Positions 2,341-63,033 of a stretch of DNA of 64,000 nucleotides are shown piece after piece. Every line of letters starts with the position of its first letter. The stretch's first letter is position 1. The DNA comes from Torpedo marmorata (lineage: Eukaryota), in contig OZ360228.1 in NCBI GenBank assembly GCA_977017645.1, positions 116,188,001 through 116,252,000 of the forward strand, read 5' to 3'. The notes under the pieces were generated by a model, which saw only the letters and a program-made list of their open reading frames with translations, was not told the DNA's origin and ran no database searches. The position numbers and the translations under genes were made by a program.

Positions 2341-2619
2341 GGAGTTGATTGAATATATGTTGGACAAATATATATCTGTTGGGGGGAGGTGGGTTTACGG
2401 ACACTTCTTCCGAACCTATCACCACCTTAGCGGCGAGAGCTGCTTCTCGAACAATGGAGGGGGGTAGCACTGGGAGTAGAAGACCAGTGTTTTTTATAGG
2501 GGAGTTTTTCTTTTTTTTACTTCTGTCTTTTATTCTAGTTGAGGAGGAAATGTATATACAGCAGAATAAGAGGGAAACGCTGGTGGATTTGATTGACAGG
2601 GAATGGTTATTATTTGATT

Positions 2620-5600
2620 ATGGGGGATTCTAGAAGTATAAATTTAGTAAGTATTAATATAAATGGGCTTAATAATCCAATTAAAAGAAAAAGAACTTTG
2701 GCATATATTAAAAAGTTGAAAGTAGATATAGCTTTTTTACAAGAAACTCATCTGACAGATATTGAACATCAAAAATTGAAAAGAGATTGGGTAGGTCATG
2801 TTATAGCTTCTTCATTTAATTCTAGAGCCAGAGGTGTAGCTATTTTAGTTAATAAAAAATTACCTTTTAAGATACAATCGATAGTGACTGATATGGCAGG
2901 AAGATATGTTTTGATATATTGTCAAATTTATTCAGAATTTTGGACTCTCATGAATTTATATGTGTCAAATCCAGATGATGAACAATTTATCCAAGATGTT
3001 TTTCTACATTTATCAGATGCTAAAGAAAATATTTTAATTGGTGGAGACTTTAATTGTTGTTTAAATCCAGTAATGGATAAAACTTCTAAGACATCTATTA
3101 GACCTAAAATAGTTAAAAAGATTATTAATTTGATGGACGATTTAAATTTGGTAGATATTTGGAGAAAATTGAATCCTAGAGAGAAAGATTACTCATTTTA
3201 TTCATTTAGACATAATTCATTTTCTAGGATAGATTTATTCTTATTATCTTCTCAAATTCAAGATAGAATAACACAAGTATCCTACAAAGCAAGAATAATT
3301 TCAGATCATTCACCTTTATTAATGACATGTATAATCCCGGAGAAGGAAAAAACTGTATATAATTGGAGATTTGACTCTTCTTTATTGAAAAGGAAGGATT
3401 TTTGTGAATATATGAGAAGAGAAATTCAGGAATTTTTAAGAACAAATAATAATTCGATTAATGATAAATTTATGATATGGGAAGCTTTGAAAGCTTATTT
3501 AAGAGGTTTAATAATAAGTTTTTCAGCAAAGATTAAGAAAGATTATTTGAAAGAAGAAGAAAAATGAGAGAGAGAGATTGAATTCATGGAAAAGGATTTA
3601 CAGAGAAATAAGTCAATTCTTAAGAGAAATCGTTTAGTTAGGAGGAAATTACATTATAATTTATTACAAACTCGTAAGACTGAAAAATTAATTGAAAGAA
3701 CGAAACAAAGATATTATGAATTAGGGGAAAAAGCTCATAAGGTTTTATCATGGCAATTAAAAAAAGAGCAAGTTTCTAAAATTATTAATGCTATAAGGAA
3801 GAGAAATACTGGGGAAATAACTTATAAGCCACAAGAAATAAATGAATCTTTTAAAGATTATTATCAGAATTTATATAGATCTGAGATCGATCATGATGAT
3901 ATGAAGATTAATAGATTTTTATCTAAAATTACTCTACCTAAATTGAGTGTTCAGAGTAAATATTCTTTGGACTTACCTTTTACGATGAGAGAAGTTACTG
4001 AGGCAATATCGACATTGAAAAGTGGTAAATCTCCGGGTGACGATGGGTTTCCAGTAGAATTTTATAAAGAATTTAAAGATTTATTGATACCTTTATTTAT
4101 GGAGGTATTGAATCAAGTTACTGAAACTCATTTATTACCGAAGACATTTTTAAACGCTATTATTACAGTTATACCAAAGAAAGATAGAGATGTGTTGAAA
4201 ACTGAGTCTTATAGGCCTATTTCATTATTAAATGTAGATTATAAAATAATGGCAAAAATTTTAGCAAATAGATTAGCTAAATATTTACCAAACTTGATAC
4301 ATTCAGATCAAGCTGGATTTATTAAGAATAGATATTCAAAAGATAATATAGCTAGATTGATAAGTTTGATTAATTTACATAAGAAGAAACAAGATTTACC
4401 ATTGGTGGTAACATTGGATGCAGAGAAGGCTTTTGATAGTTTAGAGTGGAATTTTTTATTTAAGGTTTTGGAAAAATTTGGTTTTGGAAATATTTTTATA
4501 AATTGGATTAAAACTATATACAAAGAACCTACAGCTAAAGTAGTTACAAATGGACAAATATCGCAAAAATTCTTATTATCAAGATCAACAAGACAGGGAT
4601 GCCCTCTGTCACCTGCTTTATTTGTTTTGGCAATAGAACCTTTAGCTGAATTGATTAGAGAAGATATAAATATAATGGGTATAAAAGTTGGTAGGGAAGA
4701 ACATAAGATTAGCTTGTATTAGCTTGTAAGATGATGTATTAATATATATGACAAAATCTGTCACATCACTTCAGCAATTGGCTACTATATTGATAGAATA
4801 TGGTGAGATATCTGGATATAAAATTAATTCAGATAAAAGTGAGATTTTGGCTTTATCTCAAGGGGATTATACTAGATGTAGAGAGGTTACGGAGTTTAAA
4901 TGGGCTAAAGAAAGTATTAAATATTTGGGAGTTAAAGTGGATACAAAGCTGGAAAATTTGTATAAATTAAACTATATACCTTTATTTATGAAAATAAAAA
5001 AAGATTTAGAACTTTGGAAAGACTTACCTATAACTTTGATGGGAAGAGTAAACTGTATTAAAATGAATGTTTTTCCAAGAATTCAATATCTTTTTCAATC
5101 GATTCCTTTTGGAATCCCAAATAAATTTTTTAAGGATTTAAAATTTGTTATTAGGAAATTTTTATGGAAAGGAAAGTTGGCAAGAGTAAGTATAGATAAA
5201 TTAACATGGAATTATGAGATGGGAGGATTGCAACTTCCTAATTTTCAGTATTATTACAAAGCAGCTCAATTAAAATTTATTAATGAATTTTTTGATTCAA
5301 CTAAATCTTCTGCTTGGATTAATATAGAATTGAATAATATAGGAGAAATACATAAAGAAGAGATTATTTATAAGTGGAATTCTAAATTGTTATTAGCTAA
5401 AAAGAAAAATTCACCAATTATTAAACATTTGTTGGAAATTTGGTCACAGGTAGATAAAGAGATAGGTCGGAAAGGATCAATTTATTTAAATACACCAATA
5501 TATCAAAATCTGCTTATACCATTTTCTATTGACAATCAGTTACTTAAATTATGGTTTCAAAAGGGAATTAAGACCTTAAAATATTGTTTTGAAGCTGGTA

Positions 5601-5791
5601 GATTCGTTACTTTTCAAAGGTTAAAAGAAAAATTTAATATATTAGATAATACAATATTAGTTTATTTTCAAGTTAAAGCCTTTTTGATTGAGATATTAGG
5701 GTATGAATTAGTAGCACCAAGACAAAATGAATTGGAATTGTTAATTACTAAAGTTAATATTAATAAGTTTATATCACAAATGTATAAATTA
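2620..5791 (+). pseudogene. Outer L1 ORF2, N-terminal part (APE endonuclease and RT), disrupted
   Basis: SININGLN, FLQETH, GGDFN, SRID and SDH endonuclease motifs, plus LDAEKAFD and TRQGCPLSP RT motifs. In-frame stop at 3565-3567. FADD motif destroyed and frameshifted at about 4708-4730. Confidence 0.93.
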
Positions 5792-8700
5792 AAAGTTAAA
5801 GAGAGAATGGGTGGGACATGTAGTAGCTTCATCTTTTAATTCTAAAGTGAGAGGTGTAGCGATTTTAGTTAATAAAAAATTACCATTTAAAATACAATCA
5901 GTAGTGACCGATATAGCTGGTAGATATGTTTTAGTACATTGTCAAATTTATTCAGAAACATGGACTTTTTTAAATCTATATGTTACAAATCCAGATGATG
6001 AACAATTTATTCAAGATACTTTTTTACATTTATCTGAGGCTAAGGAAAATATTTTAATTGGTGGAGATTTTAATTGTTGTCTTAATGCAAATATGGACAA
6101 ATCTACTAGAACATCTGTTAGACCTAAAATAGTTAAAAGAATTATTAATTTAATGGATGACCTGAATCTGGTAGATATCTGGAGGAAGTTAAATCCTAGA
6201 GAAAAAGATTATTCATTTTATTCTTTTAGACAAAATTCATTTTCAAGGATTGATTTGTTTTTGATATCTTCACAAGTTCAGGACAGAGTAACTCAAATAT
6301 CTTATAAAGCAAGAATAATCTCAGATCATTCACCTTTGTTAATGACATGTATAATTCCAGAGAAAGAAAAAACTGTATATAATTGGAGATTAGATTCTTC
6401 TTTATTAAATAGAAAAGACTTTTGTGAATATATAAGAAAAGAAATTCAGGAATTTTAAAGAATTAATAATAATTCAGTTAATGATAGATTTATAATTTGG
6501 GAATCTTTAAAAGCATATTTAAGAGGTTTCATAATAAGTTTCTCGGCAAAAATTAGAAAAGATTATTTGAAAGAAGAAGAAAAATTGGAAGGGGAGATTG
6601 AATTTATGGAAAAGGATTTTCAAAGAAATAAAACAATTTTTAAGAGACAACGTTTAATTAGGAAAAAACTGCATTATAATATATTACAAACACGAAAAAT
6701 AGAAAAATTAATTGGTAGAACAAAACAAAGATATTATGAATTGGGAGAAAGAGCACATAAAGTTCTAGCATGGCAATTAAAAAAAGAACAAGTTTCTAAA
6801 ACTATAAATGCTATAAGAAAAAAAAGTACTGGTGAAATAACCTATAAACCTCAAGAAATAAACGATTCCTTTAGAGAATATTATCAGAATTTATACACTT
6901 CACAGATTGATCAAGATGTTACAAAAATTGATAATTTTTTATCTAAAATTACATTGCCTAAATTAAATAATTTTAATAGAGATTTGTTAGATTTACCTAT
7001 TACAATGAGAGAAGTAGTTGAAGCTTTATCGACATTGAAAAGTGGTAAATCTCCTGGTGATGATGTATTTCCGATAGAGTTTTTTAAGAAGTTTAAAGAT
7101 TTACTGATACCTATATATATGGAAGTATTGACTCAAATAAAGGAAACTCATTTATTACCGAAAACATTTTTAAATGCTGTTATTACAGTTATACCAAAGA
7201 AAGATAGAGATGTATTAAAAACTGAGTCATACAGACCTATATCACTGTTGAATGTAGATTATAAATTAATGGCAAAAATTTTGACAAACAGATTAGCTAA
7301 GTTTTTACCGCTTTTAATACATTCAGATCAAGCAGGATTTATTAAAAATAGATATTCGAAGGATAATATAGCAAGATTAATAAGTTTAATTAATTTGCAA
7401 AAAAGGAAACAGGATTTACCGTTGGTGATAACATTAGATGCAGAAAAAGCATTTGATAGATTAGAATGGAATTTTTTATTTAAGGTTTTAGAGAAATATG
7501 GGTTTGGAAATACTTTTATAAATTGGATTAAGACTATATATAAGGAACCTACAGCTAGAGTAATTACAAATGGTCAGATATCATCTAAATTTTCCTTGAC
7601 GCGATCAACAAGACAAGGATGTCCTTTATCACCTGCTTTATTTGTATTGGCAATAGAACCGCTGGCTGAAATGATTAGGAAAGATATCAATATAAATGGG
7701 ATTAAAGTAGGTGCAGAAGAGCATAAAATTAGTTTATTTGCAGATGATGTATTAATATATATGACGAAATCTATTGGATCGCTTCAACAATTAGCTAAGA
7801 TACTGAGGGAGTATGGTGAGATATCTGGTTATAAAATAAATTCAGATAAGAGTGAAATAATGGCTTTATCTCAAGGAGATTATACTAAATGTAAAGAAGT
7901 TACAGGATTTAAATGGGCTAAAGAAGCAATTAAATATTTGGGAGTTAAAGTAGATACAAAATTGGAAAATTTATATAAATTAAATTATATACCTCTATTT
8001 CAGAAAATAAAGAAAGATTTGGAAAATTGGAAAGATTTACCTATAACCCTAATGGGAAGAGTGAATTGTATTAAAATGAATATCTTTCCAAGAGTTCAAT
8101 ACCTTTTTCAATCTATACCTTTTGGAATTCCTCAAAAATTTTTTAAAGATTTAAAAATCATTGTTAGAAAATTTTTATGGAAAGGAAAATTAGCAAGGGT
8201 AAGTATGGATAAATTAACTTGGGAATATGAGATGGGTGGATTACAACTCCCCAATTTTCAATATTATTATAAGGCAGCACAATTAAAGTTTATTAATGAA
8301 TTTTTTGATTTAACTAAATCTACTGCTTGGATTAATATAGAATTGAATAATATAGGGGAAAGATATAAGGAAGATATTATTTATAAATGGAATTCTAAAT
8401 TATTATTAGTTAAAAAGAAAAAATCACCGATTATTAAACATTTACTGGAAATCTGGACTCAGTTAGACAATGAGATAGGACGAAAAGGGTCATTATCTTT
8501 GAATATGCCATTGTATCAGAATTTATTGTTACCTTTTTCTATTGATAATCAATTTTTAAAACTATGGTTTCAAAAAGGAATTAAGAAGATTAAAGATTGT
8601 TTTGAGGCTGGAAGATTTGTTACATTCTCTAGGTTGAAAGAAAAATTTGGAATAATGGATAATACGATTTTGGCTTATTATCAGGTTAAAGGATTTTTAG

Positions 8701-9428
8701 TTGAGAAATTGGGGAATCAATTAATAACTCCTAGACAGGATGGATTAGAATTATTAATTACTAATGGAAATGTTAACAAATTTATATCACAAATGTATAG
8801 ATTACTTCAGAGAAAGATGCCTAAGGTAGGATTGCATAAATCAAGATTAAATTGGGAATCAGATTTAAATATTAGTATAGATGAAAAACATTGGAAAGAA
8901 TTATGTAAATTGAGTATGACCAAAATTATTAATGTTAGATATAGATTAGTACAATATAATTTTTTTCATCAATTATATTTAACACCTAAAAAATTAAAGA
9001 AATTTAATCCGGCACTATCAGATATGTGTTTTAGATGTAGGGATGAAATAGGTTCTTTTGTACAATGTACATGGTCATGTTTAAAAATTCAAAATTTTTG
9101 GTCTAAAGTTAAGGATTTTTTGGATAGAATTTTTAATATTACGGTTCCAATGGACCCTATGTTATTTTTATTTGGAGATATTAAAAAATTTAGTATTAGA
9201 AATAGATTGAATATGTATCAAATAGAATTTTTACGAATTGTTTTAGCGGTTTCAAAAAAATGTATCGCTATTACCTGGAAATCAGATTTAGATTTGAGTT
9301 TAGATAGATTACATGCAGAATTACGTTCTTGTATACCATTGGGAAAAATTACATATAATTTACGTGATAAATATCATTTCTTTTTGAAAATTTGGAGCCC
9401 ATATATGAGAATTATGGGTATGAATTAA
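5792..9428 (+). pseudogene. Inner L1 ORF2 (partial endonuclease, RT, Cys-rich C-terminus) with one nonsense codon
   Basis: ORFs 5811-6458 and 6567-9428 are in the same frame, separated by TAA at 6456-6458. Intact LFADD. C-terminal CFRC...W.C motif. Confidence 0.92.
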
Positions 9429-14546: not shown

Positions 14547-16634
14547 TTATGTAATTTTTTCAAGTGGTATACACGAACGAAGTTCTGCATACCATCTTTC
14601 TAATCCTAAATCTAATTCAGATTTCCAAGTAATAGCAATGCATTTCTTTGAAACAGCTAAAGCAATTCGCAAAAATTCTATTTGATACATATTTAATTTC
14701 ATCTTAGTACTAAATTTTCTAATATCTCCAAACAAAAATATCATAGGATCCATTGGAAATGTAATCTTAAATACTTTATCTAAAAATTTTTTAACTTTCA
14801 ACCAAAAATCATAAACTTTTGGACAAAACCATGTAGAATGTACAAAAGAACCTTCCTCTTTATTACATCTAAAACATAAACCTGATAGTGTCGGATTAAA
14901 TTTCTTTAGTTTTTTAGGTGTTAAATATAATTGATGAAAAAAATTGTATTGTACTAATCTATATCTAACATTAATAATCTTCGTCATACTTAATTTACAT
15001 AATTCTTTCCAATGATTTTCATCTATTCTTACATTCAAATCTAATTCCCATTTTAATCTTGATTTATGCAATCCTACTTTAGGCATTTTCCTCTGAAACA
15101 ATTTATACATTTGAGAAATAAATTTATTGACATCTCCATTAGTAACTAATAATTCTAATTCATTCTGTCTTGGTAAAATCAAAGCATAACCTAATTTCTC
15201 AATCAGAAAAGCTCTAATTTGATAATAACCAAAAAGTTTATTATCTAATATATTAAATTTATCTTTCATTCTTTGAAAAGTAATACATTTCCCAGCTTCA
15301 AAACAATCATTAATCTTCTTAATTCCTTTTTGAAACCAAATTTTAAATAATTGATTATTAATAGTAAATGGAATAAGTCCATTTTGATATAAAGGCATCC
15401 TTGAAGAAATCAATCCTTTTCCTCCTATTTCCTTATCCGTCTTATTCCATATTTGTAACAAATGTTTAAAAATAGGCGAATTTTTCTTTCTTGTTGATAT
15501 TAATTTAGAATCCCATTTATAAATAATTTCTTCTTTGGAATCTTCTCCTATATTATTTAATTCTATTTTAATCCAAGCAGAAGATTTAGTTGAATCAAAA
15601 AATTCATTAACAAATTTTAGTTGAGCTGCTTTATAATAATTTTGGAAATTAGGAAGTTGTAAACCACCCATTTCATAATACCAAGTTAATTTTTCCATAC
15701 CTACTCTTGCTAACTTTCCTTTCCATAAAAAATTTCTAATAATTGAATTTAAATCTTTAAAAAATTTTTGAGGAATTCCATAAGGAATTGATTGAAAAAG
15801 ATATTGAATTCTTGGAAAAACATTCATTTTAATACAATTTACTCTTCCCATTAAAGTTATAGGTAAATCTTTCCAATTTTCTAAATCTTTCTTTATTTTC
15901 ACAAATAATGGTAAATAATTTAATTTGTATAAATTAGCCAATTTTTTGTCAACCCTTATTCCCAAATATTTAATTCCTTCCTTTGCCCATTTAAATTGTG
16001 TAATTTCTTTACATCTACTATAATCCCCTTGTGATAATGCCATAATTTCACTTTTATCAGAATTAATTTTATATCCAGATATTTCCCCATATTCTCTCAA
16101 TAACACAGACAATTGTACTAAGGATGTAGTAGATTTTGTCATATATATCAATACATCATCTGCAAACAAACTAATTTTATGTTCTTCCATTCCAACTTTA
16201 ATACCAACTATTTTAGGATCTTTTCTAACTAATTCTGCCAAAGGTTCTATCGCCAAAATAAATAATGCTGGTGACAAAGGACATCCTTGTCTAGTAGATC
16301 GAGTCAAAGGAAATTTTGAAGAAATTTGTCCATTTGTAACTACTTTAGCAGATGGTTCTTTATATATAGTTTTAATCCAATTAATAAATGTATTCCCAAA
16401 GCCAAATTTCTCCAATACCTTAAATAAAAAATTCCACTCTAATCTGTCAAAAGCCTTTTCAGCGTCTAAAGTTAAAACTAATGGTAAATCTTCCTTCTTT
16501 TTATGTAAATTAATTAAACTAATCAATCTAGCTATATTATCTTTTGAATACCTATTTTTAATAAAACCAGCTTGATCTACATGGATTAAATCTGGTAAAT
16601 AATTAGCCATTCTATTTGCTAAAATTTTTGCCAT
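14547..16634 (-). pseudogene. L1 ORF2 fragment (RT and C-terminal Cys domain), 695-aa open stretch
   Basis: LDAEKAFD, TRQGCPLSP, LFADD, CFRC...H..W.C. Lacks the endonuclease and stops shortly before the natural C-terminus. Confidence 0.9.
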
Positions 16635-17150
16635 TATCTTATAATCTACATTTAATAATGAAATAGGTCTATAAGATTCAGTTTTACCAAGGAGCTGATT
16701 GTAGAAAGGAAAACCAGAAGTATACGATCCAATGATCAGAGATGGAGAGGGTGAGCAAATTTAAAATCCTGGGAGTCACTATCTGGGGGAACCATTCCTG
16801 GACCCATCATACCAATATCATTGTGAAGAAAGCAGGTCACCGCCTCTACTTCCTCTGGAGTTTGCAGAGGTTCGATATGTCATCGGAAACCTTGGCAAAC
16901 TTCTACAGATGCGTAATGGAAATGCTGACCAGCTGCATCATGGCCTGATATGGGGGCACCAATACCTCTGAGTGGAATGCCCTGCAAGAGGTAGTGCATA
17001 CAGCCCAGTACATCAAAAGCAAAACTCTCCTCACCATCGAGAACATCTACATGAAACACTGCCATCAGAGAGCAGAAGCAATCAAGGTTCCACACCACCC
17101 AGGGCATGCTCTGTTCTCACTGCTGCCCTTAAGAAAGAGGTATAGGTGCC

Positions 17151-19179: not shown

Positions 19180-21336
19180 ACATTGGATATCAGAAGTCCA
19201 AAAGCACCTCATTACAGGAAGGATGAGGAAGCTATGGAGAGGGTGCAGAGGACATTTACCAGGATCAGAATCAGAATCAGAATTTATTGTCATGAACAAG
19301 TCATGAAATTTGGTGTTTTGCGGCAGCATCATAGTGCAATTAACATTCATATTAACCATCTTTCGACATTACTATAAAAATTATAAATAATAGTGCACGA
19401 AAAGTAAGGCAGTGTCTTTGGTTCATTGATTATTCAGGAATCTGATGGCAGCGGGGAAGAAGCTGTCCTTGTGCCGTTGAGTGCTCGTCTTTAGGCTCCT
19501 GTACCTTTTTCCCGACGGAAGCAGAGTGAAGAGGGCATGGCCTGGGTGGTGGGGGTCTTTGAGGATAGAGACTGCTTTTTTAAGACACCGCCTCATGTAG
19601 ATGTCCTCGATGGAGTGAAGTTTGGTGCCTGTGATGTCACAGGCCGAGTTAACAACCCTCTGGAGTTAACTCTTGTCCTGAGAGTTGGCACCTCCATACC
19701 AGGCAGTGATGCAACCAGCCAGAATGCTCTCCACGGTACACCTGCAGAAGTTTACGAGAGTCTTCGGTGACATACCGAATCTCCGTAGACAGCTCACAAA
19801 GTATAGCCGCTGACGAGCCTTCTTTGTGATTGCATCAACGTGGATGCTCCAGGACAGATCCTCGGAGATGTTGACACCCAGGAATTTGAAGTTCTTGACC
19901 ATCTCCACTACTGAGCCCTCGATGAGAACTGGGTCATGTTCCCCTGACTTTCTCCTGAAGTCCACAATCATCTCCTTGGTTTTGCTGACGTTGAGCTCAA
20001 GGTTGTTGTCATTACACCATTCTATGAGCTGATCTATCTCCCTCCTGTACGCTTCCTCATTGCCATTTGTGATTCTGCCGACAACTGTGGTGTCATCGGC
20101 AAACTTGTAGATGGCATTGGAATTGTGCCTGGCCCCACAGTCATGGGTGTATAACGAGTAGAACAGTGGACTAAGCACGCATCCTTGGGGTGCACCTGTG
20201 TTGATAATCAGTGAGGATGAGACGTTGTTTCCAATTCATACTGACTGTGGTCTTCCGATGAGAAAGTCAAGGATCCAGTTGCAGAGTGGGGTACAGAGGC
20301 CTAGAGTTTCTAGCTTCTTGACCAGCACTGAGGGAATAATGGTATTGAAGGCTGAGCTGTAGTCGATGAAGAGCAGCCGTATGTATGAATTGCTGTTTTC
20401 GAGGTGATCCAGAGCTGAGTGGAGAGCCAGTGATATTGCATCTGCTGTGGAGTGATTGTGACGATAGGGGAATTGCAGTGGATCCAGATCTTAGCATAGG
20501 TACGTGTTAATTCTGGCCATGACCAGCTTCACAAAGCATTTCATCACAGTAGAAGTTAGTGCTACTGGGCGGTAGTCGTTGAGGCAGCCCACACTACTCT
20601 TTTTGGGTACCGGGATGATTGATGCCCTTTTGAAGCAGGTGGGAACCTCTGACTGCCGCAATGAGAGGTTGAGAATGTCCGTGAACACTCCGGCTAGTTG
20701 GTTGGCGCAGATTTTCAGTACCCTGCCAGGTACGCCGTCAGGGCCTGACGCCTTGTGAGGGTTCACCCTCTTGAATGATGTTCTGACATCGCCCTCGGAG
20801 ACAGATATCACAGGGTCCTCAGCCTTTTCAGAGATTCTAGTAGGCACTGTTTTGTTCTCCTTCTCAAAGCGTTGCCTGGATTGGAAAACAAGTATTATGA
20901 GGCAAGGTTAGTAGAACTGGGACTTTTCTCTTTGGAGCGTAGAAGGATGAGAGGAGACTTGATAGAGGTCTACAAGATTATGAGAGGCATAGATAGGGTG
21001 GAAAGCCAGCACCTCTTTCCCATGGCAGGAACAGCAAACACCAGAGGACATCTGTACAAACTGAAGGGAGGGAAGTTTAGGGGAGACAACAGGGGTAAGT
21101 TTTTTTTACGCTGAGAGTTGTGTGTGCCTGGAATGCCTTGCCAGAGATGATAGTGGAGTCTGAACAATAGGGGTATTTAAGAGTCTTTTAAACAGGCACA
21201 TGGATGAAAGACAAGTACTGTTGTGCGCTATGAGGGAGGGAGGGTTTGTTTTATTTGGGGGTAGGTACAGTATTTATAGGTCGGCACAACATCATGGGCC
21301 GAAGGGCCTCCAGTGTGCTGTAATGTTCTATGTTCT
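19180..21336 (+). mobile_element. CR1 3' fragment interrupted by a Rex1 element
   Basis: APHYRKDEEAMERVQRTFTR (to about 19263) joins [35 protein letters not shown] (from 20871). Tail ends ttctatgttct. Confidence 0.88.
19264..20870 (-). mobile_element. 5'-truncated Rex1/Babar LINE (RT to 3' end)
   Basis: [36 protein letters not shown], and (TTCTGA)n tail after AATAAA. Highly similar to 53072-55859. Confidence 0.92.
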
Positions 21337-21519
21337 CTGAACCTGGAGGTGCTGGACCTCAGGCTTCTGTACCTTCTACTTGAATGTTCAGATGAATGGC
21401 GAGGTGAAATGAAAGGTGTTTTTTCATTTTCACCTTGGATTCCTCTGGCACATGGATGAAAGAAAAATAGAGGGTTACGGGGTAGGGTGGGTTTACTACT
21501 TTTTTTTAGGAATATATGG

Positions 21520-22157
21520 TGTAAGAGCCGTAGGCTCATTAACTTACCGTTGTTGCGGCGCTCCGATGTCTCGTCAGGCCTTGGAGCGCTCGCGTTGTTC
21601 TGTAGGCCGTCCTCGGAGCGCACCGAGGCCGCGTCGGGCCATGGAGCGCTCGCGTTGTACTGTAGGCCGTCGTCGGCCCGTTCTGTGCTCTGCGCATGCG
21701 CGGGAGTGCCGACGGGCGCATGCGCAGTATGGAGTGACGTCATTGTGCGTGTTGCAGTCTGGGAAATGTAGTATGCGCGGGGTAGGATGCGCGGTGGTTT
21801 AGGAGCTAATGGGCATGCGCAGATCAAGGATAGAGAGAGAGAAAAGGAAAGGAATAAGATGTTTGGAGGGTGAGTGGGGTCTCCACATCTTTATTGACCG
21901 TTTTTATATCGTTTAACATCATTTTACAGTGTTTCATATTGTTTTGGAATTGTTTAAAGAATAATTTAAAGGAACACTACGTACATCATTTCAAGAACTG
22001 TTTATATTGAGGTCATTGAAGATTGCTGCAAGTCACGTGTGTAAATAAAGGTTTTTGAACATATTGGACTTTGTTGGTGGATTGATTGAAACGCGTCAAA
22101 GACAAGGACCACACTTAGCCTCCAGGTGACTATTGTTGGATCGAAGTCACCGTAATA
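21520..22157 (+). repeat. 5' LTR of the BEL element
   Basis: TGTAAGAGCC...CGTAATA. About 13 substitutions versus the 3' LTR, counted by eye. Confidence 0.95.
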
Positions 22158-22607
22158 TAGTCAATAAAGAGCTGGCTGTTTGGAACAGAAAGTTGAAGGA
22201 AAGAAGATAGAAAAAACTGTCTGAGCTTTGGACAGATATATAAAATGGTGGCCATCTTGGAGATGCCTCGAGTTGGGGGCAGTTTGTAATCCACTTCCAT
22301 CTGCCATAAATAACAGCCAGAGAGGGATTTAAAGCTTCAAATCTTATAATAAAGTGTCCTATAATTACGTTGGAGAAACCATTTTTGGAAAATCAGTGAT
22401 ATTAGTGACGGATGTTGTGGTTGAAACTCGTTTGTGGATTGCAGCACATTACAGTCATTTGAAGTGGTAGGCATAAGTCTGTGGACTCCTTCTGTGTATC
22501 TTTAGCAAGTAAGAACACAGATTGGAATTGCTGCCGCTGGTCCATTGGGGACTGTTGTTTGGCTAGTGTTGTGTATGCTTGAAGGAAAGAGGAACAAGAC
22601 GAGTAAA

Positions 22608-25600
22608 ATGGCCGCAGCAGCCACTGATACAGCAGCTACTGATATATCAGCAGCTGACGCAGCAACCGCTGATGTTGCTGTTGAGGACCAATGTATTGAA
22701 GACATGAAGGTTGCGGATATTAAAGAAGAATTGAAGCGACTGAAAAAGGACATAAGTGGAAATAAAAAGGTTCTTATCGAAAGATTGAAGCTGGCAAAGG
22801 ATGAAGAGGCAGCTTCATTAGTTGAACAAGAAGATAACTTGGAAATGGCTGAAATTGTGTCAACAAATGATGAAGAAATTGAAGTGGTAGAAGATGCAAA
22901 GGATATACAATTTGAATTGGATAAAGAGGTAAGTATGAAGACAACATATGAACAGCAGGACGAAATACAAGCAAGTGACAGTGTCTCAAATGCTGAAAGC
23001 AGGAGAAGCAAAAGAAGTTCTGGTTCGAGCTCCAGAGTTTCTCGTACTTCAAGTTCTGCATCGTCACGTACAAAGATTGATGTTAAATTGGCCGCTCTTC
23101 TTGCACAACAAGAATTTCTTAAGGATAAACATGTTTTAGAAGAACAGGAGGAGGAACTAAAGGAGGAGCAGCTGAGGCAGAGACAACGGCTGAGGCAGAG
23201 ACAACAGGAGGAGCAGCTGATGCAGAACCAACAACTAAGAAAGAGACAAGAGCAGCTAAGAAAGAAAAAAGAACAGCAGGAGCTGAAAGCAAACATTGCT
23301 ATTGCCAAGGCAGAAAAGAAAGCAATAGAAGGCTCAATGGTATCTGGTGCTAGAAGTAAATTATCTAAAGTGTCTGATAATAAAAGGTCATATTTAAAAA
23401 AGGAGTCACAGGAAAATAAACCAACCAAAAGGATAGATATTTTAGAACCAAGGATACAAAACTTGCAAATACCAGGACAAACCTTTCAAGAACATATTGA
23501 TATCGAGTCACATGTACCAACGGTAACATCTGAAAGCAAAGCTGCGGCTTGGGTTCGGTCGAATGAAGCAGCTTCTTTGTTATTTGAGTCAAATATCAGA
23601 AATATGGAAGAAACTACACCAGTGAGGTTTCCAGATACATTGCATGTAACAAGAGACGGTGAACAGAGCAATGTATTGTCGTCCAAGGAAAGACAAAATG
23701 AAATTGCTGCATCATTGTTTCAGTCTCTTCTTTACCCAAGAAAGAGATACAAACTTTTGATGGTGATCCACTTCAATATCAATCATTTATGAGATCTTTC
23801 AAACGCAATATTGAAGATAAATGCCAAGATCGTGATGAATGTCTTTATTATTTGGAAATGTTCACAAAGGGACATCCAAAAGAACTGGTAAAGAGTTGTA
23901 AACAAATGTCTTCAAAAAGAGGATTAGACAAAGCTAAGGCTTTATTGGAACAATATTTTGGCAACAAGCATTGAATTGCTTTAGCTTATATGGATAAAGC
24001 TCTTAAATGGACATCAATAAAACAAAATGATGTAAAGGCTCTGCAAGAGTATACTCTGTTTTTAAGAGGATGTTGTAATGCTATGGAAGAAATCGATAAT
24101 ATTCGTGAGCTTGAAGTGCATAGTAATATGCGAATCATCTTAGAAAAATTACCTTACAAGTTATGGGATAGATGGAGAAATTTGGCTTGTGATTTACAAA
24201 TAAATTACGGTCGAAAAATTACCTTAAAGGATTTGGTAAATTTTCTTGAACGACAGGTGTATGTTGAAACAGATCCACTATATGGAAATACCAGAGATAA
24301 TTCAATGGGCAAAGATGTAAAGAAGTCTAACACACTGTCTAGTCCGAAAGTGAAAAGGAGTACTTTTGCTACTAATGTGTCAGTTATAAATAAAGAAAAG
24401 GACAAAGTAAAGAAGGAAAAGGAAAGTTTGCCTGATGAAAAGAGTTGTTTGTTCTGTAAAGGTGGACATGCTTTGGAAATGTGTTTACGATTGGAAAAGA
24501 AGGAACATAAGGAAAAGATCGCTTTCTTAAAGGAAAATGGAATATGTTTTAGCTGTCTGTGTAAAGGGCACATCAGTAAAAACTGCGAGAAGCGAATTAA
24601 TTGTAACATATGCAATTTGAAACATCCTAGAAATTTGCATATCCATAACAGAAACAAGGAATTGGAAAAGGAGCAAACAGAAACAAAGGAAACAACAGAA
24701 AATAATGTTATAACCTCGGTTCAGACAAGTGGTCTTACTGGGGCCGGGGTGAATAACTGCAAACTTTCAATAGTGCCTGTACAAGTCAAGGCCAAGAAAG
24801 GGGATGCAATAGTAAAAACATATGCATTTCTAGACCCAGGCAGCACTGCATCTTTTTGCACGGAAGGACTAATGAATAAACTTAATATTCAAGGAAAAAG
24901 ATCAAGAATTATGTTAAAAACCATGGGACAAGAAAAGGTTGTTGAAACTAACATTGTTTCAGGCTTAGAGGTTGCTGGATTGGATGACAAAAAATTTTGT
25001 GATCTTCCAAGTGTATACACTCAGAAGACTATGCCTGTGAATGAAGGAAATATTCCTCATCAAAGGGATATCCATCATTTAGCATATCTGTGGAAGGTTT
25101 ATTTACCTGAAATTAATTCTGAGATAGAAATGCTGATTGGTTCAGATGTGCCAAAGGTTTTGGTACCAAAAGAAGTAATAGAGAGTAAAAGGAATGGACC
25201 TTACGCTATTAGAACCATGCTTGGTTGGGCAATCAATGGACCAATGGAAAGAAATAATGATATTGCTCAGGAACAGGTAGCGATAAATATTAATAGAATT
25301 TTGTTTGAGAAAGTTGAAGAATTAAGAGAAGAGCAAAAAACTGTGAATAAGAAAATCACTTTTGAAGAAAAGAAAACAGATCAATGGGAAAATAAATCAA
25401 TGGTATTTAAAACAACATTGAAGGAATTAATTTCGTCAGAAATGGATGAAAGTGAAGTATTAGAAGATGTTGCAAATAATACTATTGATCATTCATGTGT
25501 AATTGAATCAAATACAGGAATAAAACAAGTGACTGAAAACAAATCTGAATGTAGATTTTGTAGTTCAGAGATTACAACAGACAAAGCTAATGAAGAATTA

Positions 25601-26404
25601 TTGCAATGTGATGTAAAACTGGAGAACACAGAAAATTGTGCTGATGGAATAAAGAATAATGTGAATGATAATTTAATGCAATTGAATTCAGAGAACAAAA
25701 TGTTGAAAGGGGAATTGGAAATATTAGATAATCAAGAAAACAGTAAACAGAAAGATTTAATTGTAAGTAAAACTCGTAAAGTCAGAAAGCGGAAGAAAAG
25801 AATAACTGCTGAAGAAATGAATACAGTTATTGAGGAAAGAGATTCAGCATTATCAAAATGTAAAAGGTTGGAGGAAGAGATTAATGTTTTGAAAGAGAAC
25901 AAGTTATTGGTTAATAACACAAAACAGTTAACTTTTAAAACCAATCAAGAATGTAAATTGAATGATCAACAATTAACAATGCAGAAAAAATGTGATATTG
26001 CATTGCAGAAATGTAACAAGCAAGACGAAGAAATTAAAAAATTTCAAGTATGCCGCAACAGGATTGACAATGGAAATATCAATGTATCACATGATATTTT
26101 GACTTCGGATCAAATTATTAATTTCTCGGAAAGAATTGAGACTGAATTGAAAGTTGCAAAATTGGATTTAGAATTGCAGGAAAGAGCAATAGAAACCAGA
26201 GTGGTTAAACAGACCTGTTTAAAATCGAAAGGATCAAATAAATATTCAAATTCTAATTCTAAGAGTTTAAATTCTTCACATGAGAAGTGGAATACTGAAG
26301 AAAAGAATAAAGTGAAACGACATGCTGAAGAAGTGCCTCATGTTAAATTCAAAAGGAAAACTGTATCTATTTTGTCTGAAGAAGATTTGAGGTTTACTGA
26401 TTGA
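22608..26404 (+). pseudogene. BEL polyprotein: SAP-like domain, coiled coil, Gag (DUF1759-like), 3 zinc knuckles, aspartic protease, MIPOL1-like coiled coil
   Basis: LPKKEIQTFDGDPLQYQSF after a frameshift at about 23730. In-frame TGA at 23972-23974. CLFCKGGHALEMC, CFSCLCKGHISKNC, CNICNLKHPRNLH, AFLDPGSTASF and RTMLGWAINGP. No RT or RNase H motifs follow. Confidence 0.9.
25760..26053 (+). other. MIPOL1: Captured host-gene fragment resembling MIPOL1 (mirror-image polydactyly 1) coiled coil
   Basis: KRITAEEMNTVIEERDSALSKCKRLEEE matches my recollection of vertebrate MIPOL1 MRITAEEMSALIEERDAALSKCKRLEQE, with colinear weaker similarity over about 100 aa. Not database-verified. Confidence 0.78.
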
Positions 26405-26427
26405 CGTTTTAACTCAGATTTGAAGAT

Positions 26428-26615
26428 AAAAGAACTTTAAAGAGACATTGTGATTATTATGGATAATTCAACTTCAAGAAACTCCTGGTTACTTGGAGAT
26501 ATTATTGAGACTTTTCAAGACAAAGAGGACTTGTGCGTCAAGTGTGAATTAAAACTAAGACTGGTTTTTTCGAAACAGACCTATTAACTAGGTCTGCCTT
26601 TTGTTGGAGACAGAG
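26428..26615 (+). pseudogene. Frameshifted remnant of the BEL integrase C-terminus (DUF5641-like)
   Basis: Translates piecewise as DIVIIMDNSTSRNSWLLGDIIETFQDK / GLVRQV / IKTKTG / RPI / VCLLLE. Confidence 0.8.
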
Positions 26616-26813
26616 GAACTTTGATAAATATAAACTGACTTTATTTGTTGTTGTATATTTCACAGGTTACAGACTTTTGTTGAATCAGAGTTATGGTAAA
26701 CTCTAGGTTTATGAAGAAGGAAGAAAGAAGATTGGTATTGTTTTGAATGTTATGGTTATTGTTATTTATAATTTATAGTGTAATTATTATTCAAGACATT
26801 ACATCTAATTATA

Positions 26814-26828
26814 ATAATTAGGGGCCGG
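26814..26828 (+). promoter_or_regulatory. Polypurine-tract region (plus-strand primer site)
   Basis: ataattaggggccgg immediately upstream of the 3' LTR. Confidence 0.8.
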
Positions 26829-27466
26829 TGTAAGAGCCGTAGGCTCATTAACTTACCGTTGTTGCGGCGCTCCGATGTCTCGTCAGGCCTTGGAGCGCTC
26901 GCGTTGTTCTGCAGGCCGTTCTCGGAGCGCACCGAGGCCACGTCGGGCCATGGAGCGCTCGCGTTGTACTGTAGGCCGTCGTCGGCCCGTTCTTTGCTCT
27001 CCGCATGCGCGGGAGTGCCGACGGGCGCATGCGCAGTATGGAGTGACATCATTGTGCGCGTTGCAGTCTGGGAAATGTAGTATGCGCGGGGTAGGATGTG
27101 CGGTGGTTTAGGAGCTAATGGGCATGCGCAGATCAAGGATAGAGAGAGAGAAAAGGAAAGGAATAAGATGTTTGGAGGGTGAGTGAGGTCTCCACATCTT
27201 TATTGACCGTTTTTATATCGTTTAACATCATTTTACAGTGTTTCATATTGTTTTGGAATTGTTTAAAGAATCATTTAAAGGAACACTACATACATCATTT
27301 CAAGAACTGTTTATATTGAGGTCATTGAAGATTGCTGCAAGTCACGTGTGTAAATAAAGGTTTTTGAACATATTGGACTTTGTTGGTGGATTGATTGAAA
27401 CGCGACAAAGACAAGGACCACACTTAGCCTCCAGGTGACTATTGTTGGATTGAAGTCACCGTAATA
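26829..27466 (+). repeat. 3' LTR of the BEL element
   Basis: Direct repeat of 21520-22157, preceded by the PPT. Confidence 0.95.
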
Positions 27467-28990
27467 TATGGGTCGGCACAACATCGAGGAGCGAAGGGCC
27501 TGTACTGTGCTGTAGTGTTCTATGTTCTATCTTCTAAAATACTGCAGTTGATGGAAATCTAAACTAAAACAGAAAATGCCATAAATATCCAGCAAGACAA
27601 GTAGTATTTATGGAAAGTGAAAGAGAGTTAACTTCCATTCGAACTCGGAAAATTTAGAAATGAAGTAATTTATATGTTCAGAGGGAGGAGGGAGAGGAGG
27701 CGAGAGGACAAACAGGAAGGCAGGAGAGATGGAATGTCACAGGTCGCATTGGCGGTGGTATTGGCTAAAAGAGGGCGGTGAAGGAACATAATAAGGGGAT
27801 GTTGCCCTGACAGACATTTGATCATGTGGGGTTGGATTGTGAATGGATCAGTTCCACCACCGTGACCCATCCTCTGCAATCTTCCCACTTGTCAGATATT
27901 GATCATTTTGAAGCCTGTCTACTGCAGCCACCAATGGGATAAGAGGAGGCTGCAGCTGTGCGGACTCATGGGTCGGAAGGGCCTGTTACTGTGCTGTATC
28001 TCTAAATTAGGAATAAAAATGGCCAGAGACACTCAAAAATTATTTAAATCGAGCAAATATTTTAAAGTTAATATTCATCACAAAATAAATAAATACATCC
28101 ACAGCTGGATTCTGACACCTGCAAACATGAAAGATGACAAACAGCAGTGGGCTGATAGTTCTCTGTTCTTGATTAGTGAGGGTGTCAAAGGTTGTGGGAG
28201 AAGGCAGGAGAATGAGTTGAGAGGAAAAATACATCAGCCATAATTTGAATGGCAGAGCAGACTCAATGGCCTAGTTCTGTCCGATGTCTTATGGTCTAAG
28301 GATCTGCCAGTTCAGTTCATCTGAGGCCATTCCTGCACAATTTATTTCCAGGGTTCTTTATCTTTTAATCATCATTGCCCATTATCACATCTCTTTTAGC
28401 AAATTGGCCTTCACATATCCTATGCCACAGAAGTGACTCATTTTGTAATTCCTTAGTTGACTGTAAAGTGCTCTATAACACCTTTTGTTGGTCTGGACTC
28501 CTTCCCCTGCCAGTCTTTATTCTCTCATCTTCCTGTTCTTTGCTTACACCTTGAAGACACCTCGCTAATATATCTTTACCTCTTATGGACGCTGCAACAC
28601 CGACTGAGTTCCTTCAGCATTTCTGTGTGTTTCTACTGTAAAGTGCTTCTGGTCATTTATGGTTTTGAAAGATGCTACCAGAGACAAGATAATAGAGAAC
28701 ATTTCACAAGTTCATGTTTGACGATAATCAAAATATAATATTCACAACAACAAATGAAGGGGAAACTTGGCACTTTGCTGTTAGGCACATGGATGATGAC
28801 ACACTATCCTGGACTCTTCTGCCTCTAATGTCTGGACTTCACACAAGCTGAGGATTTTTTTGAACAATACAGCACCGTAGAAGGCCCTTACAGTCCTTGA
28901 AACCCATGCCAATTACACCAAGTTAAGCTAGCAACCCTGTACGGTTTGGAGGGTGAGAGAAAACCGGAGCACCCATAGAAAACTGACATG

Positions 28991-37392: not shown

Positions 37393-40115
37393 TATAACCA
37401 TATAACAATTACAGCACGGAAACAGGCCATTAGACCCTTCTAGTCCGCACCGAACCAAACTCTCCTCTCTAGTCCCACCTACCTGCACCCTGCCCATAAC
37501 CCTTCACTTCCTTCTCATCCATATACCTGTCCAACTTTTTCTTAAATAATAAAATTGACTCTGCCGCCACTACTTCTCCCGGAAGCTCATTCCACACCGC
37601 TACCACTCTCTGAGTAAAGAAGTTCCCCCTCATGTTACCTCTAAACCTCTGCCCCTTAACTCTTAACTCATGTCCTCTTGTTTCAATCTCTCCTAATCTT
37701 AATGGAAATAGTCTATCCACATCCACTCTGTCTATCCCTTTCATAATCTTAAATACCTCTATCAAATCCCCTCTCAACCTTCTACACTCCAAAGAATAAA
37801 GACCTAATCTGCTCAATCTCTCCTTGTACTCTAGATGCTTAAACCCAGGTAACATTCTGGTAAATCTTCTCTGCACTCTCTCCACTCTGTTGATATCCTT
37901 CCTATAATTTGGCGACCAGAACTGCACACAGAACTCTAAACTAGGCCGCACCAACGCCTTATATAATCTCAACATCACTTCCCAACTCCTATATTCTATG
38001 CAATGATTGATAAAGGCCAGCATACTAAAAGCATTCTTCACCACCCTATTCACATGAGTTTCTACCTTCAGGGAACGATGCACCGTTATTCCTAAATCTT
38101 TCTGCTCTTCTGTATTCATCAATGCTCTCCCATTTACTACGTATGTCCTGTTTTGATTCTTCTTACCAAAATGAAGCACCTCACACTTATCAGCATTAAA
38201 CTCCATTTGCCATTTTTCAGCCCACTTTTATAAGCAGCCCAAATCCCTCTGCAATCCTTGAAAACCTTCTTCATTATCCACTATTCCACCTATCTTAGTA
38301 TCATCTGCATATTTACTAATCCAGTTCACCACCCCATCATCTAGATCATTAATGTATATAACGAACAACAATGGGCCCAATACAGATCCCTGAGGCACAC
38401 CGCTGGTCACCGGCCTCCAACCTGACAGACAATTATCCACTACCACTCTCTGGCCTCTCCCTTTCAACCAATGTTCAATCCATTTGACTATCTCAAAATT
38501 TATACCTAAAGACTGCACCTTCCTAACTAACCTTCCATGTGGTACCTTATCGAAGGCCTTACTGAAGTCCATATAGACAACATCCACTGCGCTACCCTCA
38601 TCCACATTCCTAGTCACCTCTTCAAAAAATTCAATCAGATTGGTCAAACAGGACCTTCCGCTCACAAATCCGTGTTGAGTGTTCCTGATCAGACCCTGTC
38701 TATCCAGATATTTATAAGTACTATCTCTAAGAACTTTCTCCATTAGTTTACCTACCACAGACGTCAAACTTACAGGCCGATAATTGCCAGGCTTCCTCCT
38801 TGAACCCTTTTTAAATAACGGAACCACATGCGCAATACGTTAATCCTCCGGCACTATCCCCATCTCTAATGATATTTGGAAAATCACCGTCAGAGCCTCT
38901 GCTATTTCCTCACTTACTTCTCTCAAGGTCCTGGGGAAGATCCCGTCAGGTCCCAGAGACTTATCCACCTTTATGTGCCTCAAAAGCCCTAACACTACAT
39001 CTTTCGTAATCACTATATTCTCCATATTTACCCAATTTGCTATTATTATCTCGCATATCCCAATATCCTTCTCCTTGGTGAATACCGAAGAAAAGAAACT
39101 GTTCAATATCTCCCCCATTTCTCTAGGCTCCACACACAGTTTTCCGCTCTGATTCTCTAAGGGACCAATTTTGTCCCTCGCTTTCCTTTTACCATTAACG
39201 TATTTGTAGAAACCTTTTGGATTAATTTTCACCCTGCTTGCTATAGTCTCCTCGTACCTTCTTTTAGCTTTCCTAATTCCTCTCTTAAGATTATTTTTAC
39301 ATTCAATGTATTTTTCAAACATCTCCTTAATTCCATGCTTCTTATACTTAATGTAAGCCTCCCTTTTTTTTCGAACCAAGTTTCCAATATTCCTCGAAAA
39401 CCACGGCTCTCTCAAACCTTTTGCCCCTCCTTTTAACCTAACAGGAACATAAAGCTTTTGCACTCTCAAAATCTGATCTTTAAAAGACTTCCATCTCTCT
39501 ACTACATCCTGCCCATAAAACAAATTGTCCCAATGCACACCCTGTAAGTCCCTTTGCATCTCCTCAAATCTAGCTTTTCCCCAATCAAAAACCTCAACCC
39601 TTGGCCCTGACTTATCTCTTTCCATAATGTCATTGAAGCTGATGGCATTATGATCACTGGACCCGAAGTGCTCGCCAACACAAACCTCCGTCACTTGACC
39701 TATCTCATTTGCCAACAGTAGATCTAACACTGCTCCTTCTCTGGTCGGTACCTCTACATATTGTTGTAAAAAACTATCATGCACACATTTCACAAACTCC
39801 AACCCATCCAGCCCTTTCACAGAATGTGTTTCCCAATCTATATGTGGAAAATTAAAATCTCCCATAATTACAACCCTGTGCTTATCACAAATATCCACTA
39901 TCTCCCTACAGATTTGCTCCTCTAGGTCTCGGTCCCCTCCGGGTGGTCAATAATACACCCCTACAAGTGTAACTTCTCCTTTCCCACTCCTCAGTTCCAC
40001 CCAAATAGCCTCCGTGGACGAGCCCTCTAATCTATCCTGCCTAAGCACCGCTGTAATATTCTCCCTGACAAGCAATGCAACACCACCTCCTCTTGCCCCT
40101 CCGACTCTATCACCT
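37393..40115 (-). mobile_element. 5'-truncated CR1 LINE (HER1-like): partial endonuclease plus RT, with a few lesions
   Basis: [56 protein letters not shown] and RRLRGDLIEVFK across ORFs 38840-39898, 38228-38827 and 37469-38206. Confidence 0.95.
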
Positions 40116-45068: not shown

Positions 45069-46455
45069 AGAAAATGACGGCAGGCATCCGAACAAAAGAG
45101 TGAGGGGGGAAGGGGGGTGGCAAAGGCAGGAGATGATAGGTGGAGAAAGGAGGGAGGGGATAGCAGCAAAGAGGGGGAGGAGGGATGGCTGGGTAGGTGG
45201 AGGAAAACAGGAAGGACAGGTGAGGGGGGAGGGGAAGGGAGCGACAAGCAGGTTTAATGGAAAGTAGAAAAGTCAATGTTAATGCCATCTGGCTGGAGAG
45301 TACCCAGACGGAAAATGAGATGTTGTTCCTCCAATTTGCGGGTAGTCTGGGTGGGATAGTACATAAGGCCATGGACAGACATGTGAGTGTGGGAGTGTGA
45401 CCCGGAATTGAAATGGTTGGCTACTGGGAGGTCGCTGTTGTTGCGGACGGAGAGGAGGTGCTCAGCAAAGTGATCTCCCAATCTACGACCGGTCTCTCCG
45501 ATGTAGAGAAAGCCACAGAGGGAGCAATGGATGCAGTAAATAAGTTCTCTGGATGTACAAGTGAAGTGTAGTTTCACTTGGAAGGCCTGTTTGGGGCCCT
45601 GGACCGTGGTGAGGGGGGAGGTGTGGGCGCAGGTATTGCACCTCATGCGGGCACAGGGGAAGGTGCCGGGGGTGCGATGGGTGGGGAGGGATGAGTGCAC
45701 GAGTGAATCGCGGAGGGAGCGGTCCCTACGGAAGGCCGAGAGGGGAGGAGAAGGAAAAATGTGCCTGGTGGTGGGATCCTGTAGTAAGTGCCGGAAATTC
45801 CGGCGGATAATGTGTTGGATGCGAAGGCTGGTGGGGTGGTAGGTGAGGATGAGGGGGATTTTATGTTTGTTGCGTCTGGGGGCAGAGGGGGCCAGGGCAG
45901 ATGAGCGGGAAATGGAGGAGATGCGGGTGAGGGCTGAGTTGATGGTGGTGGAGGGGAAGCCACGTTTCTGGAAAAAGGCAGACATTTCAGAAGATCTGGA
46001 CTGGAACACCTCATCTTGGGAACAGATGCGGCGGAGGCGGAGAAATTGAGAGAAGGGGATGGAATCCTTGCAGGGGACAGGGTGTGAGGAAGTGTAGTCC
46101 AGATAGTTGTGGGAGTTGGAGGGTTTGTAGTAAATGTCGGTGGAAAGCTTGTCTCCTGAGATGGAGACAGAGAGATCCATGAAGGGCAGAGTGTTATCGG
46201 AGATGGACCTGGTGAATCCGGCAATCTCCAGCCAGATGGCATTAACATTGACTTTTCTGCTTTCCACTAAACCTGCTTGTCACTCCCTTCCCCTCCCCCC
46301 TCACCTGTCCTTCCTGTTTTACTCCACCTACCCAGCCATCCCTCCTCCCCCTCTCTGCTGCTGTCCCCTCCCTCCTTTCTCCACCTATCATCTCCTGCCT
46401 TTGCCACTCCCCTTCCCCCCTCACTCTTTTGTTCGGACGCCTGCCGGCATTTTCT

Positions 46456-49294: not shown

Positions 49295-50466
49295 AAACAC
49301 ACCAAAATTCTGGAGGAACTCATCTGGTCTTTTCAGCATCTATAGGAGACAAAGATATATTGCCGACATTTCGGGCCTGAGCCCTTCTTCAAGGAAAACT
49401 CAGAAAAGGCAGAAGCAGAATATATAGGAAAGTCTCAGAATTCAAACAATGGGTGAAGAATCCAGACCAACAAAAGGTGTTAATTGGATATGATAAGGGA
49501 CTAGGTGAGAATTTATCATGTCTGTGCAAAAGGAGACAGGGAAAGGAGAGACGACAGGGGAAGAAGGGGGTGGGGGGTTAACAAAAGCAGAGAAGTCAAA
49601 ATTAATGCCATCCGGTTGGAGGGTGCCCAGTCGGAAGATGAGGTGTTGTTCCTCCAATTTACAGGTGGTCTCAGTCTGGCAGTGCATGAGACCATGGACA
49701 GACATGTCGGCAAAGCAATGGGATGGAGAATTGAAATGGGTGGCCACTGGGAGATCCACGCTATTGCGGAGGATAGAGCCGAGGTGCTCAACAAAGCGAT
49801 CTCCCAGTCTGCGTCCAGTGTCTCCGATGTAGAGAAGACCACAGCGGGAGCACCAGATGCAGTATATGACCCCTGCAGATTCACAAGTGAAATGTTGCTT
49901 CACTTGGAAGGTCTGTTTGGGGCCCTGAATAGTGCTGAGGGAGGAGGTGTGGGCGCAAGTGGAGCATCTCCTGCGGTCACAGGGGTAGGTCCCAAGGGAA
50001 TGATTGGTGGGGAGGGAGGAATAAACAAGGGAGTCACAGAGGGAGCCGTCCCTGCGGAAGGCGGAGAGGGGAGGAGAGGGGAATATGTGTCTAGTGGTGG
50101 GATCACGTAGTAGGTGGCGGAAATGGCGGAGGAGGATGTGTTGGATGCAGAGGCTGGTGGGGTGGTAGGTGAGGACAAGGGGAATCCTGTCCTTGTTGCG
50201 CGTGGGGGTGGAGGGGGCCAGGGCAGATGTGCGGGTAATGGAGGATATGCGGGTGAGTGCCGAATTGATGGTGGTAGAGGGAAAGCCACGTTGTTTGAAG
50301 GAGGATATCTCTGATGATCTGTCATGGAAGTCCTCATCCTGAGTGAAGATGTGATGGAGACGGAGGAATTGAGAGAATGGAATGGAATCCTCACGGGTAC
50401 AGGGTGGGAAGAGGTGTAGTCGAGGTAGCTGCAGGAGTTGGGTTTATAGAAGATGTCTGTCGAGAG
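49295..50466 (-). mobile_element. Penelope-like element, second subfamily (GIY-YIG and pLTR)
   Basis: GVIYCIWCSRCGLLYIGDTGRRLGDRFVEH. Degenerate hammerhead-like motif at about 49360-49395. Confidence 0.9.
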
Positions 50467-58530: not shown

Positions 58531-58538
58531 CACCACAA

Positions 58539-63030: not shown

Positions 63031-63033
63031 GAT

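Follow-up and report, generated by a model that had tools for sequence, protein, structure and literature searches.

Spliced pieces of BRCA1, MIPOL1 and Elongin A in place of pol in a high-copy, non-autonomous BEL/Pao element of Torpedo marmorata

In a 64,000-nt stretch of the Torpedo marmorata genome (contig OZ360228.1, positions 116,188,001 to 116,252,000; hereafter the window), a long open frame begins as the Gag and protease of an LTR element and then runs on in sequence that is not pol. What is this sequence, how did it come to stand in the place of pol, and why has it stayed open? A reading of the letters alone (the sequence-only reading) had proposed that host RNA was captured in place of pol, placing a MIPOL1 fragment in frame behind Gag-protease. 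We found that this holds, and that MIPOL1 was not captured alone: where RT-RNase H-integrase would lie, the reading frame runs through spliced fragments of BRCA1, MIPOL1 and Elongin A (ELOA), all in sense orientation, with exact junctions between host exons and no introns.

The element occupies 21520-27466 on the forward strand and is a young, non-autonomous derivative of the BEL/Pao group. Its two LTRs (21520-22157 and 26829-27466), each 638 nt with TG...TA ends, differ at 13 positions (K2P 0.021) and are flanked by the 5-bp target-site duplication TATGG (21515-21519 and 27467-27471). An N-terminal gag frame with a SAP domain (22608-23792; domain at about 22695-22790, PF02037, E 1.2e-8) is disrupted in the window copy by a frameshift near 23.7 kb and a stop codon at 23972-23974. 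It is followed by an 809-codon open frame (23975-26404), in which the remaining Gag with its Cys/His knuckles and an aspartic protease (motif at 24827-24844) span 23975-25336, with 87-91% amino acid identity to pol-bearing relatives, and are succeeded by about 350 residues without a Pfam match. As the sequence-only reading had remarked of the RT motifs, neither this frame nor the complete 1330-aa frame of a sister copy has a match to RT, RNase H or integrase families. The order is Gag-protease-BRCA1-MIPOL1-ELOA, all on the sense strand and each piece in its native frame. Beyond the cassette, 26442-26828 comprises the 3' end of a helper-type pol (an out-of-frame DUF5641 remnant), the 3' UTR and a purine tract, with 94% DNA identity to a pol-bearing relative. 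The cargo is bounded by two halves of one LTR element, the match to the relatives stopping at 25336 and restarting at 26442. The BEL-type affiliation of the Gag-protease part comes from the frame of these relatives, which matches DUF1759 (below cut-off), Peptidase_A17 and DUF5641; a DUF1758 match in one older cargo copy is weak (E 0.003). With RT, Peptidase_A17/RNase H and integrase missing, the window element is a non-autonomous derivative rather than a full autonomous member of BEL/Pao.

The window as a whole apparently holds no host gene. AT-rich LINE copies, which from their motifs we take to be L1/Tx1-like, lie at 955-9428 (+; apparently a tandem or nested pair), 14547-16760 (-) and 63033-63998 (+), and further fragments at 37469-39946 (-), 19666-20907 (-), 45254-46279, 49442-50443 and 58267-59851 (-) are presumably CR1-like, L2/Rex-like and Penelope-like.

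The genome measures 6.2 Gb, and the nearest named protein matches are those of rays. Positions 25745-26050 (residues 591-692) are 66% identical over 102 aa to ray MIPOL1 (database-wide E 7e-34); the 34 matches all have two Pfam domains in common, and every one of the 23 with a name is MIPOL1, which rules out a generic coiled-coil match. The downstream piece at 26060-26221 corresponds to earlier MIPOL1 residues, 295-375 (tblastn E 2.6e-8), so that the out-of-order arrangement suspected at the outset is real. A homodimer prediction for the MIPOL1 piece scored 0.18, which speaks neither for nor against dimer formation. The stretch before MIPOL1 (25337-25756) is BRCA1, with 61% identity to ray BRCA1 over 139 aa in the window copy (pairwise E 2e-46); six of six matches are BRCA1 (best E 4e-71). 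The large exon of the single host BRCA1 locus is 87-92% identical to 13 of 13 older copies; the match begins at its acceptor in 11, and upstream of that acceptor the element runs on in BRCA1 coding sequence, not intron. The captured fragment (25337-25757) is in its native frame and spliced across this acceptor. A database entry, "ray BRCA1 isoform X2", starts with a Gag-like retrotransposon segment (residues 1-195), probably an annotation artefact.

The third gene is best seen in older copies. In one of these, the open frame extends beyond MIPOL1 into Elongin A (PF06881, E 7e-16; PDB 8oev_M, E 7.5e-37), and in a second the ELOA piece spans human residues 426-585. All seven copies compared have an exact joint between two host ELOA exons that lie 10.7 kb from each other, with identities of 95-98% and 91-96%; an Elongin A paralogue (C25:175318134-175337048) is just 76-78% identical to the captured piece. 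The tail of the window cassette (26204-26420) is an eroded remnant of this fragment, in which the frame ends with a stop at 26402-26404. The three pieces occur together: among 20 loci chosen for ELOA only, the fetched flank contains MIPOL1 in 19 and BRCA1 in 15. An earlier notion that the flanks of MIPOL1 were pol linker was wrong, these being the BRCA1 and ELOA pieces. At the switch point from BRCA1 to MIPOL1, the sole one compared with both host partners, 2 nt are shared exactly, or 4 of 5, which is weak microhomology.

Host MIPOL1 lies on contig C40 (64385712-64591881), where seven exons, B to H (136, 106, 130, 34, 171, 108 and 95 nt), all with AG/GT ends, were mapped over 206 kb. We compared them with 16 older element copies chosen from the closest matches to ray MIPOL1 protein, and hence the least diverged. 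All 16 show the exon order F(part)-G-H-B-C without introns, most exon matches being 91-98% identical; 14 start at F48, and 13 also contain the first 18-20 nt of exon D. The common order and boundaries indicate that a single MIPOL1 capture lies behind all of them. In the window copy, exons F (part), G and H occupy 25758-26058 (junctions 25858/25859 and 25963/25964) and exons B and C occupy 26059-26203, with an 81-nt in-frame deletion near 26131; alignment to the host gene, proposed earlier as a check, bears out that the piece crosses exon junctions intronless. The joint of exon H to exon B (26058/26059), eroded in the window copy, is exact in the older ones, its junction 16-mer being perfect in 11 and carrying one mismatch in the other five. 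It consists of the host donor TACTACAG (followed by gt in the host) fused to CAGGGCTG behind the upstream acceptor (ag). Host exon B has a tandem acceptor, of which the element took the upstream one. The reversal that the sequence-only reading had noticed is, in the older copies, an exact junction of the back-splice type and not a random rearrangement; the chance that a random template switch would land on both splice sites is roughly 1 in 26,000.

A junction of this kind could in principle come from linear RNA, through an ancestral tandem duplication of exons B-H or through trans-splicing between two MIPOL1 pre-mRNAs. Such RNAs would bear the identical H-B junction, and Dong et al. (PMC4897178) note other possible origins of non-colinear junctions. 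We consider a linear origin very improbable: the intron preceding exon B has one match in the genome and is single-copy, no second exon B was found in the 45 kb fetched downstream of exon H, and all captured MIPOL1 sequence (F48 to D18-20) is confined to exons B-H. In the first two of these comparisons no extant tandem duplication of exon B was found. Back-splicing would be the simplest source of the joint, and the template was very probably a circular RNA of MIPOL1 with the H-B joint as its back-splice junction. Exons B-H total 780 nt and contain no stop reading round the circle; a host circle of this kind would be a candidate for rolling-circle translation. The copies give no sign that the capture went beyond a single lap: exon E is missing from all 16 older copies, and a tandem array in one copy (L082) is an internal duplication with units 100% identical. 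The older copies (L073-L088) retain three or four residues in common with MIPOL1 of another ray that have since changed in the host gene, and the capture thus predates those host substitutions.

The missing pol points to dependence on helpers. The Pao family PF05380 yielded 6,618 candidates across all BEL families, from which eight loci were fetched, six for their long frames and two as top matches. In seven of the eight, LTR, gag and protease are 87-94% identical to those of the window element, and the match resumes from 26442; one scanned relative carries SAP, DUF1759, RT, Peptidase_A17, integrase and DUF5641. No env family match was found in the helper frame, and about 200 nt separate the helper stop from the 3' LTR. 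The cargo is missing from these pol-bearing relatives, and we therefore rejected the possibility that it is a normal BEL domain. Old cargo copies are about 73% identical to the relatives in gag-protease, and their dS from the window copy is 0.54-0.63 in gag/protease versus 0.29-0.33 in the cassette. The LTRs of young cargo copies and of pol-bearing relatives end in TA (window 22157 and 27466; L105-L112); those of older cargo copies end in the usual CA. From the dS contrast and the helper-like LTR end of the young form, we infer that the cassette shifted onto the backbone of the current helper by recombination. In all likelihood, then, judging by these comparisons, the pol-bearing relatives are the source of RT and integrase, acting in trans, and gag and LTRs have passed between them and the cassette-bearing element.

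The element is abundant. A 24-nt cargo motif has 25,443 genome matches at two or fewer mismatches and its reversed control none; this number of copies would make up about 2.4% of the genome if full length. Four cargo copies met in 300 kb of unrelated intron DNA are compatible with a range of 23,000-212,000. A single decayed copy, one of the readings considered, is ruled out by these many genomic copies. The first 70 exact motif matches on one contig comprise four tandem duplicates, one old-type copy and 65 copies of the window form; dropping the duplicates (L123-L126) and the old-type copy (L161) left 65 young copies taken by position, which are 93-98% identical to the window copy. The old form with the longer ELOA piece gave 261 first-look candidates. 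It retains a part of Elongin A (L078:7300-7580 and about 260 other older copies) which we take to be the BC-box part and which the young form, about a hundredfold commoner, has lost. K between LTR pairs is 0.066-0.102 in six old copies, 0.006-0.033 in four young ones and 0-0.024 in seven pol-bearing relatives; one repeat pair (L075) with K 0.20 and ends that are not LTR-like was left out of the dating. Tandem arrays of the element with a spacing of about 5 kb occur at L122-L126 (C1:1498292-1518171) and on C3914, and in one locus (L084) a young cargo copy is nested inside an older one. From the host to the young form the cassette diverged by about 20% in identity, and 65 of 66 positional copies are of the drifted form, 79-81% identical to the host. 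No intermediates between the old and young cassette forms, which are about 20% apart, were found among the 66 independent positional copies; the element may have persisted for long at low copy number, or the change may have taken place in a different species. No fused protein of other species was found among 7,998 scored candidates of 444-1416 aa, which is weak evidence of absence because annotations mask repeats. Contigs from four sequencing runs, two covering both forms and two the young form alone at low depth, are uninformative on expression or host range.

Why has the frame remained open? Between the host and the window copy, the cassette became shorter and its G+C content fell from 39% to 29-30%, and no stop arose against 3.1 + 6.4 expected (P ~7e-5). 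All seven lineage indels, a class that requires a difference from two or more of six old copies, are multiples of three (3, 24, 120, 81, 195, 3 and 3 nt), as against 10 of 52 private indels (p 6e-5). The reading frame of the cassette is clearly under selection. Its residues present a different picture: the synonymous share of changes equals the type-matched neutral expectation in both BRCA1 (z 0.56) and MIPOL1 (z -0.60), and the mean BLOSUM score of the changed MIPOL1 residues is -0.08. Since long-term change in the MIPOL1 residues has gone at the neutral rate, the kept frame is no proof that a MIPOL1 protein is used. The earlier proposal that the chimera replicated as a family with its frame maintained is borne out by the many motif matches, the want of stops and the in-frame indels. 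An early estimate of w 0.09 (low dN) for the cargo was discarded because the copies behind it had been picked by protein identity.

These data bear on the possibility that the MIPOL1 coiled coil (about codons 596-687) was recruited to a function within the polyprotein, for instance as an oligomerisation arm replacing the Pol domains in protease activation or particle assembly, with the same history of capture. In an MK-type contrast, the ratio of nonsynonymous to synonymous variants in MIPOL1 among the 65 young copies is 105:24 for private variants and 42:26 for those shared by at least three copies (p 0.003; p 0.001 at six or more copies), with a neutrality index close to that of the protease (p 0.002), in keeping with recruitment; the BRCA1 piece is without such signal (92:25 and 50:16, p 0.71), and the ELOA piece has p 0.46. 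With CpG sites removed, however, the MIPOL1 signal falls to p 0.06-0.07, whereas the protease is still at p 0.003 at the same threshold (z 4.2), and the direct contrast of MIPOL1 with the flanking pieces is not significant (p 0.14-0.27). The best-kept block of 15 MIPOL1 codons is 96% identical to the host, but it is A-rich, and most cassette changes start from C or G. Seven of the 65 young copies, all scattered within one 19-tip subfamily, have a stop at codon 688, at the boundary of a T/A run, where inheritance and a mutation hotspot are both possible; the last 120 codons therefore need not always be translated. This stop and a 45-nt deletion within exon G, common to one subfamily, both leave codons 596-649 intact, as recruitment would have it, and HIV-1 reports, in the portions available, describe RT or a post-protease leucine zipper as affecting protease activation (PMC11998509, PMC3291649). 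Against this stands the neutral change from host to window described above. Protein-level selection on the MIPOL1 piece is only suggestive, and we judge its recruitment unlikely. Slightly more doubtful still is the fuller proposition that a host coiled coil from a circular RNA would serve as a working replacement of the Pol domains, helping the parasite to outnumber its helper several-fold, and that the Elongin A BC-box region of the earlier form could have docked a host ubiquitin ligase.

The best reading is that the cargo is stop-free filler and not a recruited protein, which also explains why all three pieces are in their native frames. The long frame is probably kept for the sake of RNA stability or of translation-linked packaging. 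We think it somewhat probable, from the pattern of stops and indels, that what is selected is an uninterrupted frame with the host pieces as filler; most likely, translation reaching close to the 3' end would spare the RNA the decay that a long 3' UTR can trigger. No direct precedent for this decay step was found in our literature search. Camouflage, an idea from plant gene-capture work, would offer another advantage, in that pieces of needed host genes might make piRNA silencing costly to the host and so favour the chimera. The older copies, 87-98% identical to the host BRCA1, MIPOL1 and ELOA exons, are near enough for cross-targeting; but it is the drifted form that has succeeded, near-host copies are rare, and the kept frame would be left unexplained, so that camouflage seems to us very improbable. 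Taken together, the explanation that we favour, with somewhat better than even confidence, is that of a Gag-protease BEL/Pao derivative that arose by capture of host RNA, lives off helpers and keeps its cargo as stop-free filler. Pol would have been replaced when RT, once or repeatedly, switched template to host RNAs packaged alongside that of the element; the MIPOL1 template would have been a circular RNA with the H-B back-splice junction; and helpers would provide RT and integrase in trans, the cassette swapping gag and LTRs with them by recombination.

The literature searched, which leaves out most subscription papers, contained no account of this element or its combined features. LTR-mediated capture, multi-gene capture (as in maize Bs1) and circRNA pseudogenes are each already known; their combination at such a scale was not found in print. 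A three-gene capture in one frame, BRCA1 included, has here been amplified to at least 25,443 copies, and thousands of dated copies permit a test, seldom possible, of whether it is the protein, the reading frame or the RNA for which captured host sequence is retained. Defective oncogene-transducing retroviruses have a Gag-host fusion replacing pol, depend on a helper and recombine with it. The sequence-only reading had drawn this analogy, and it applies to the architecture, in which gag is fused to host sequence, and to helper dependence, which the missing pol implies. It fails in that env is missing, spread is germline-intragenomic, and there is no evidence of an effect of the cargo on the host; the element behaves as a defective transducing retrovirus would, without belonging to that class.

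Among transposons, the nearest parallels are the animal LTR-mediated retrocopies of Tan et al. 2016 (PMC5131818), which include BEL/Pao cases such as mosquito BEL18 and two genes in the Drosophila Pao element BATUMI. As in those, spliced host pieces lie in sense orientation between two halves of an LTR element, and introns have been removed, here at four colinear MIPOL1 junctions, one 10.7-kb ELOA intron and one BRCA1 acceptor. In the parts of that paper available, however, the retrocopies are young with limited secondary copying and the word "circular" is absent, in contrast to three genes in a Gag-protease frame, a back-splice junction and more than 25,000 copies. Maize Bs1 (PMC5131818, PMC13317346) is likewise non-autonomous, an LTR element whose hybrid frame is made up of segments from three host genes, its copies all sharing their switch points; as described in the available text, it has 1-5 copies and is interpreted as a new host gene, whereas the present element is a mass-replicating vertebrate parasite with a circRNA-type junction. 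The mouse circRFWD2 circRNA-derived pseudogenes (Dong et al. 2016, PMC4897178), with 33-42 copies and a mechanism termed mysterious, share with it a reversed exon junction at exact splice sites, sequence only from exons within the circle, and LTR sequence in the flanks. Unlike in those, carrier, helper and both breakpoints are visible here, and the putative circle junction lies within a presumably translated frame that has stayed open; this element may lay out how a circRNA reaches the genome, a question that the paper defining such pseudogenes left unanswered. Finally, a preprint (bioRxiv 10.64898/2026.06.26.734816) names MIPOL1 at the head of the five genes with the most retrocopies in cartilaginous fishes; its main text, without BRCA1, ELOA or the word "circular" in the parts available, takes the MIPOL1 copies for ordinary retrocopies, with expression and selection as the shaping forces. 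The other top parents in that list (SUDS3, SDF2L1, SLU7 and ZNF276) may also be transposon cargo. The element may be the reason for the top place of MIPOL1, and counts of MIPOL1, BRCA1 and ELOA retrocopies in such genomes may reflect one transposon family and not independent retrocopies under host selection.
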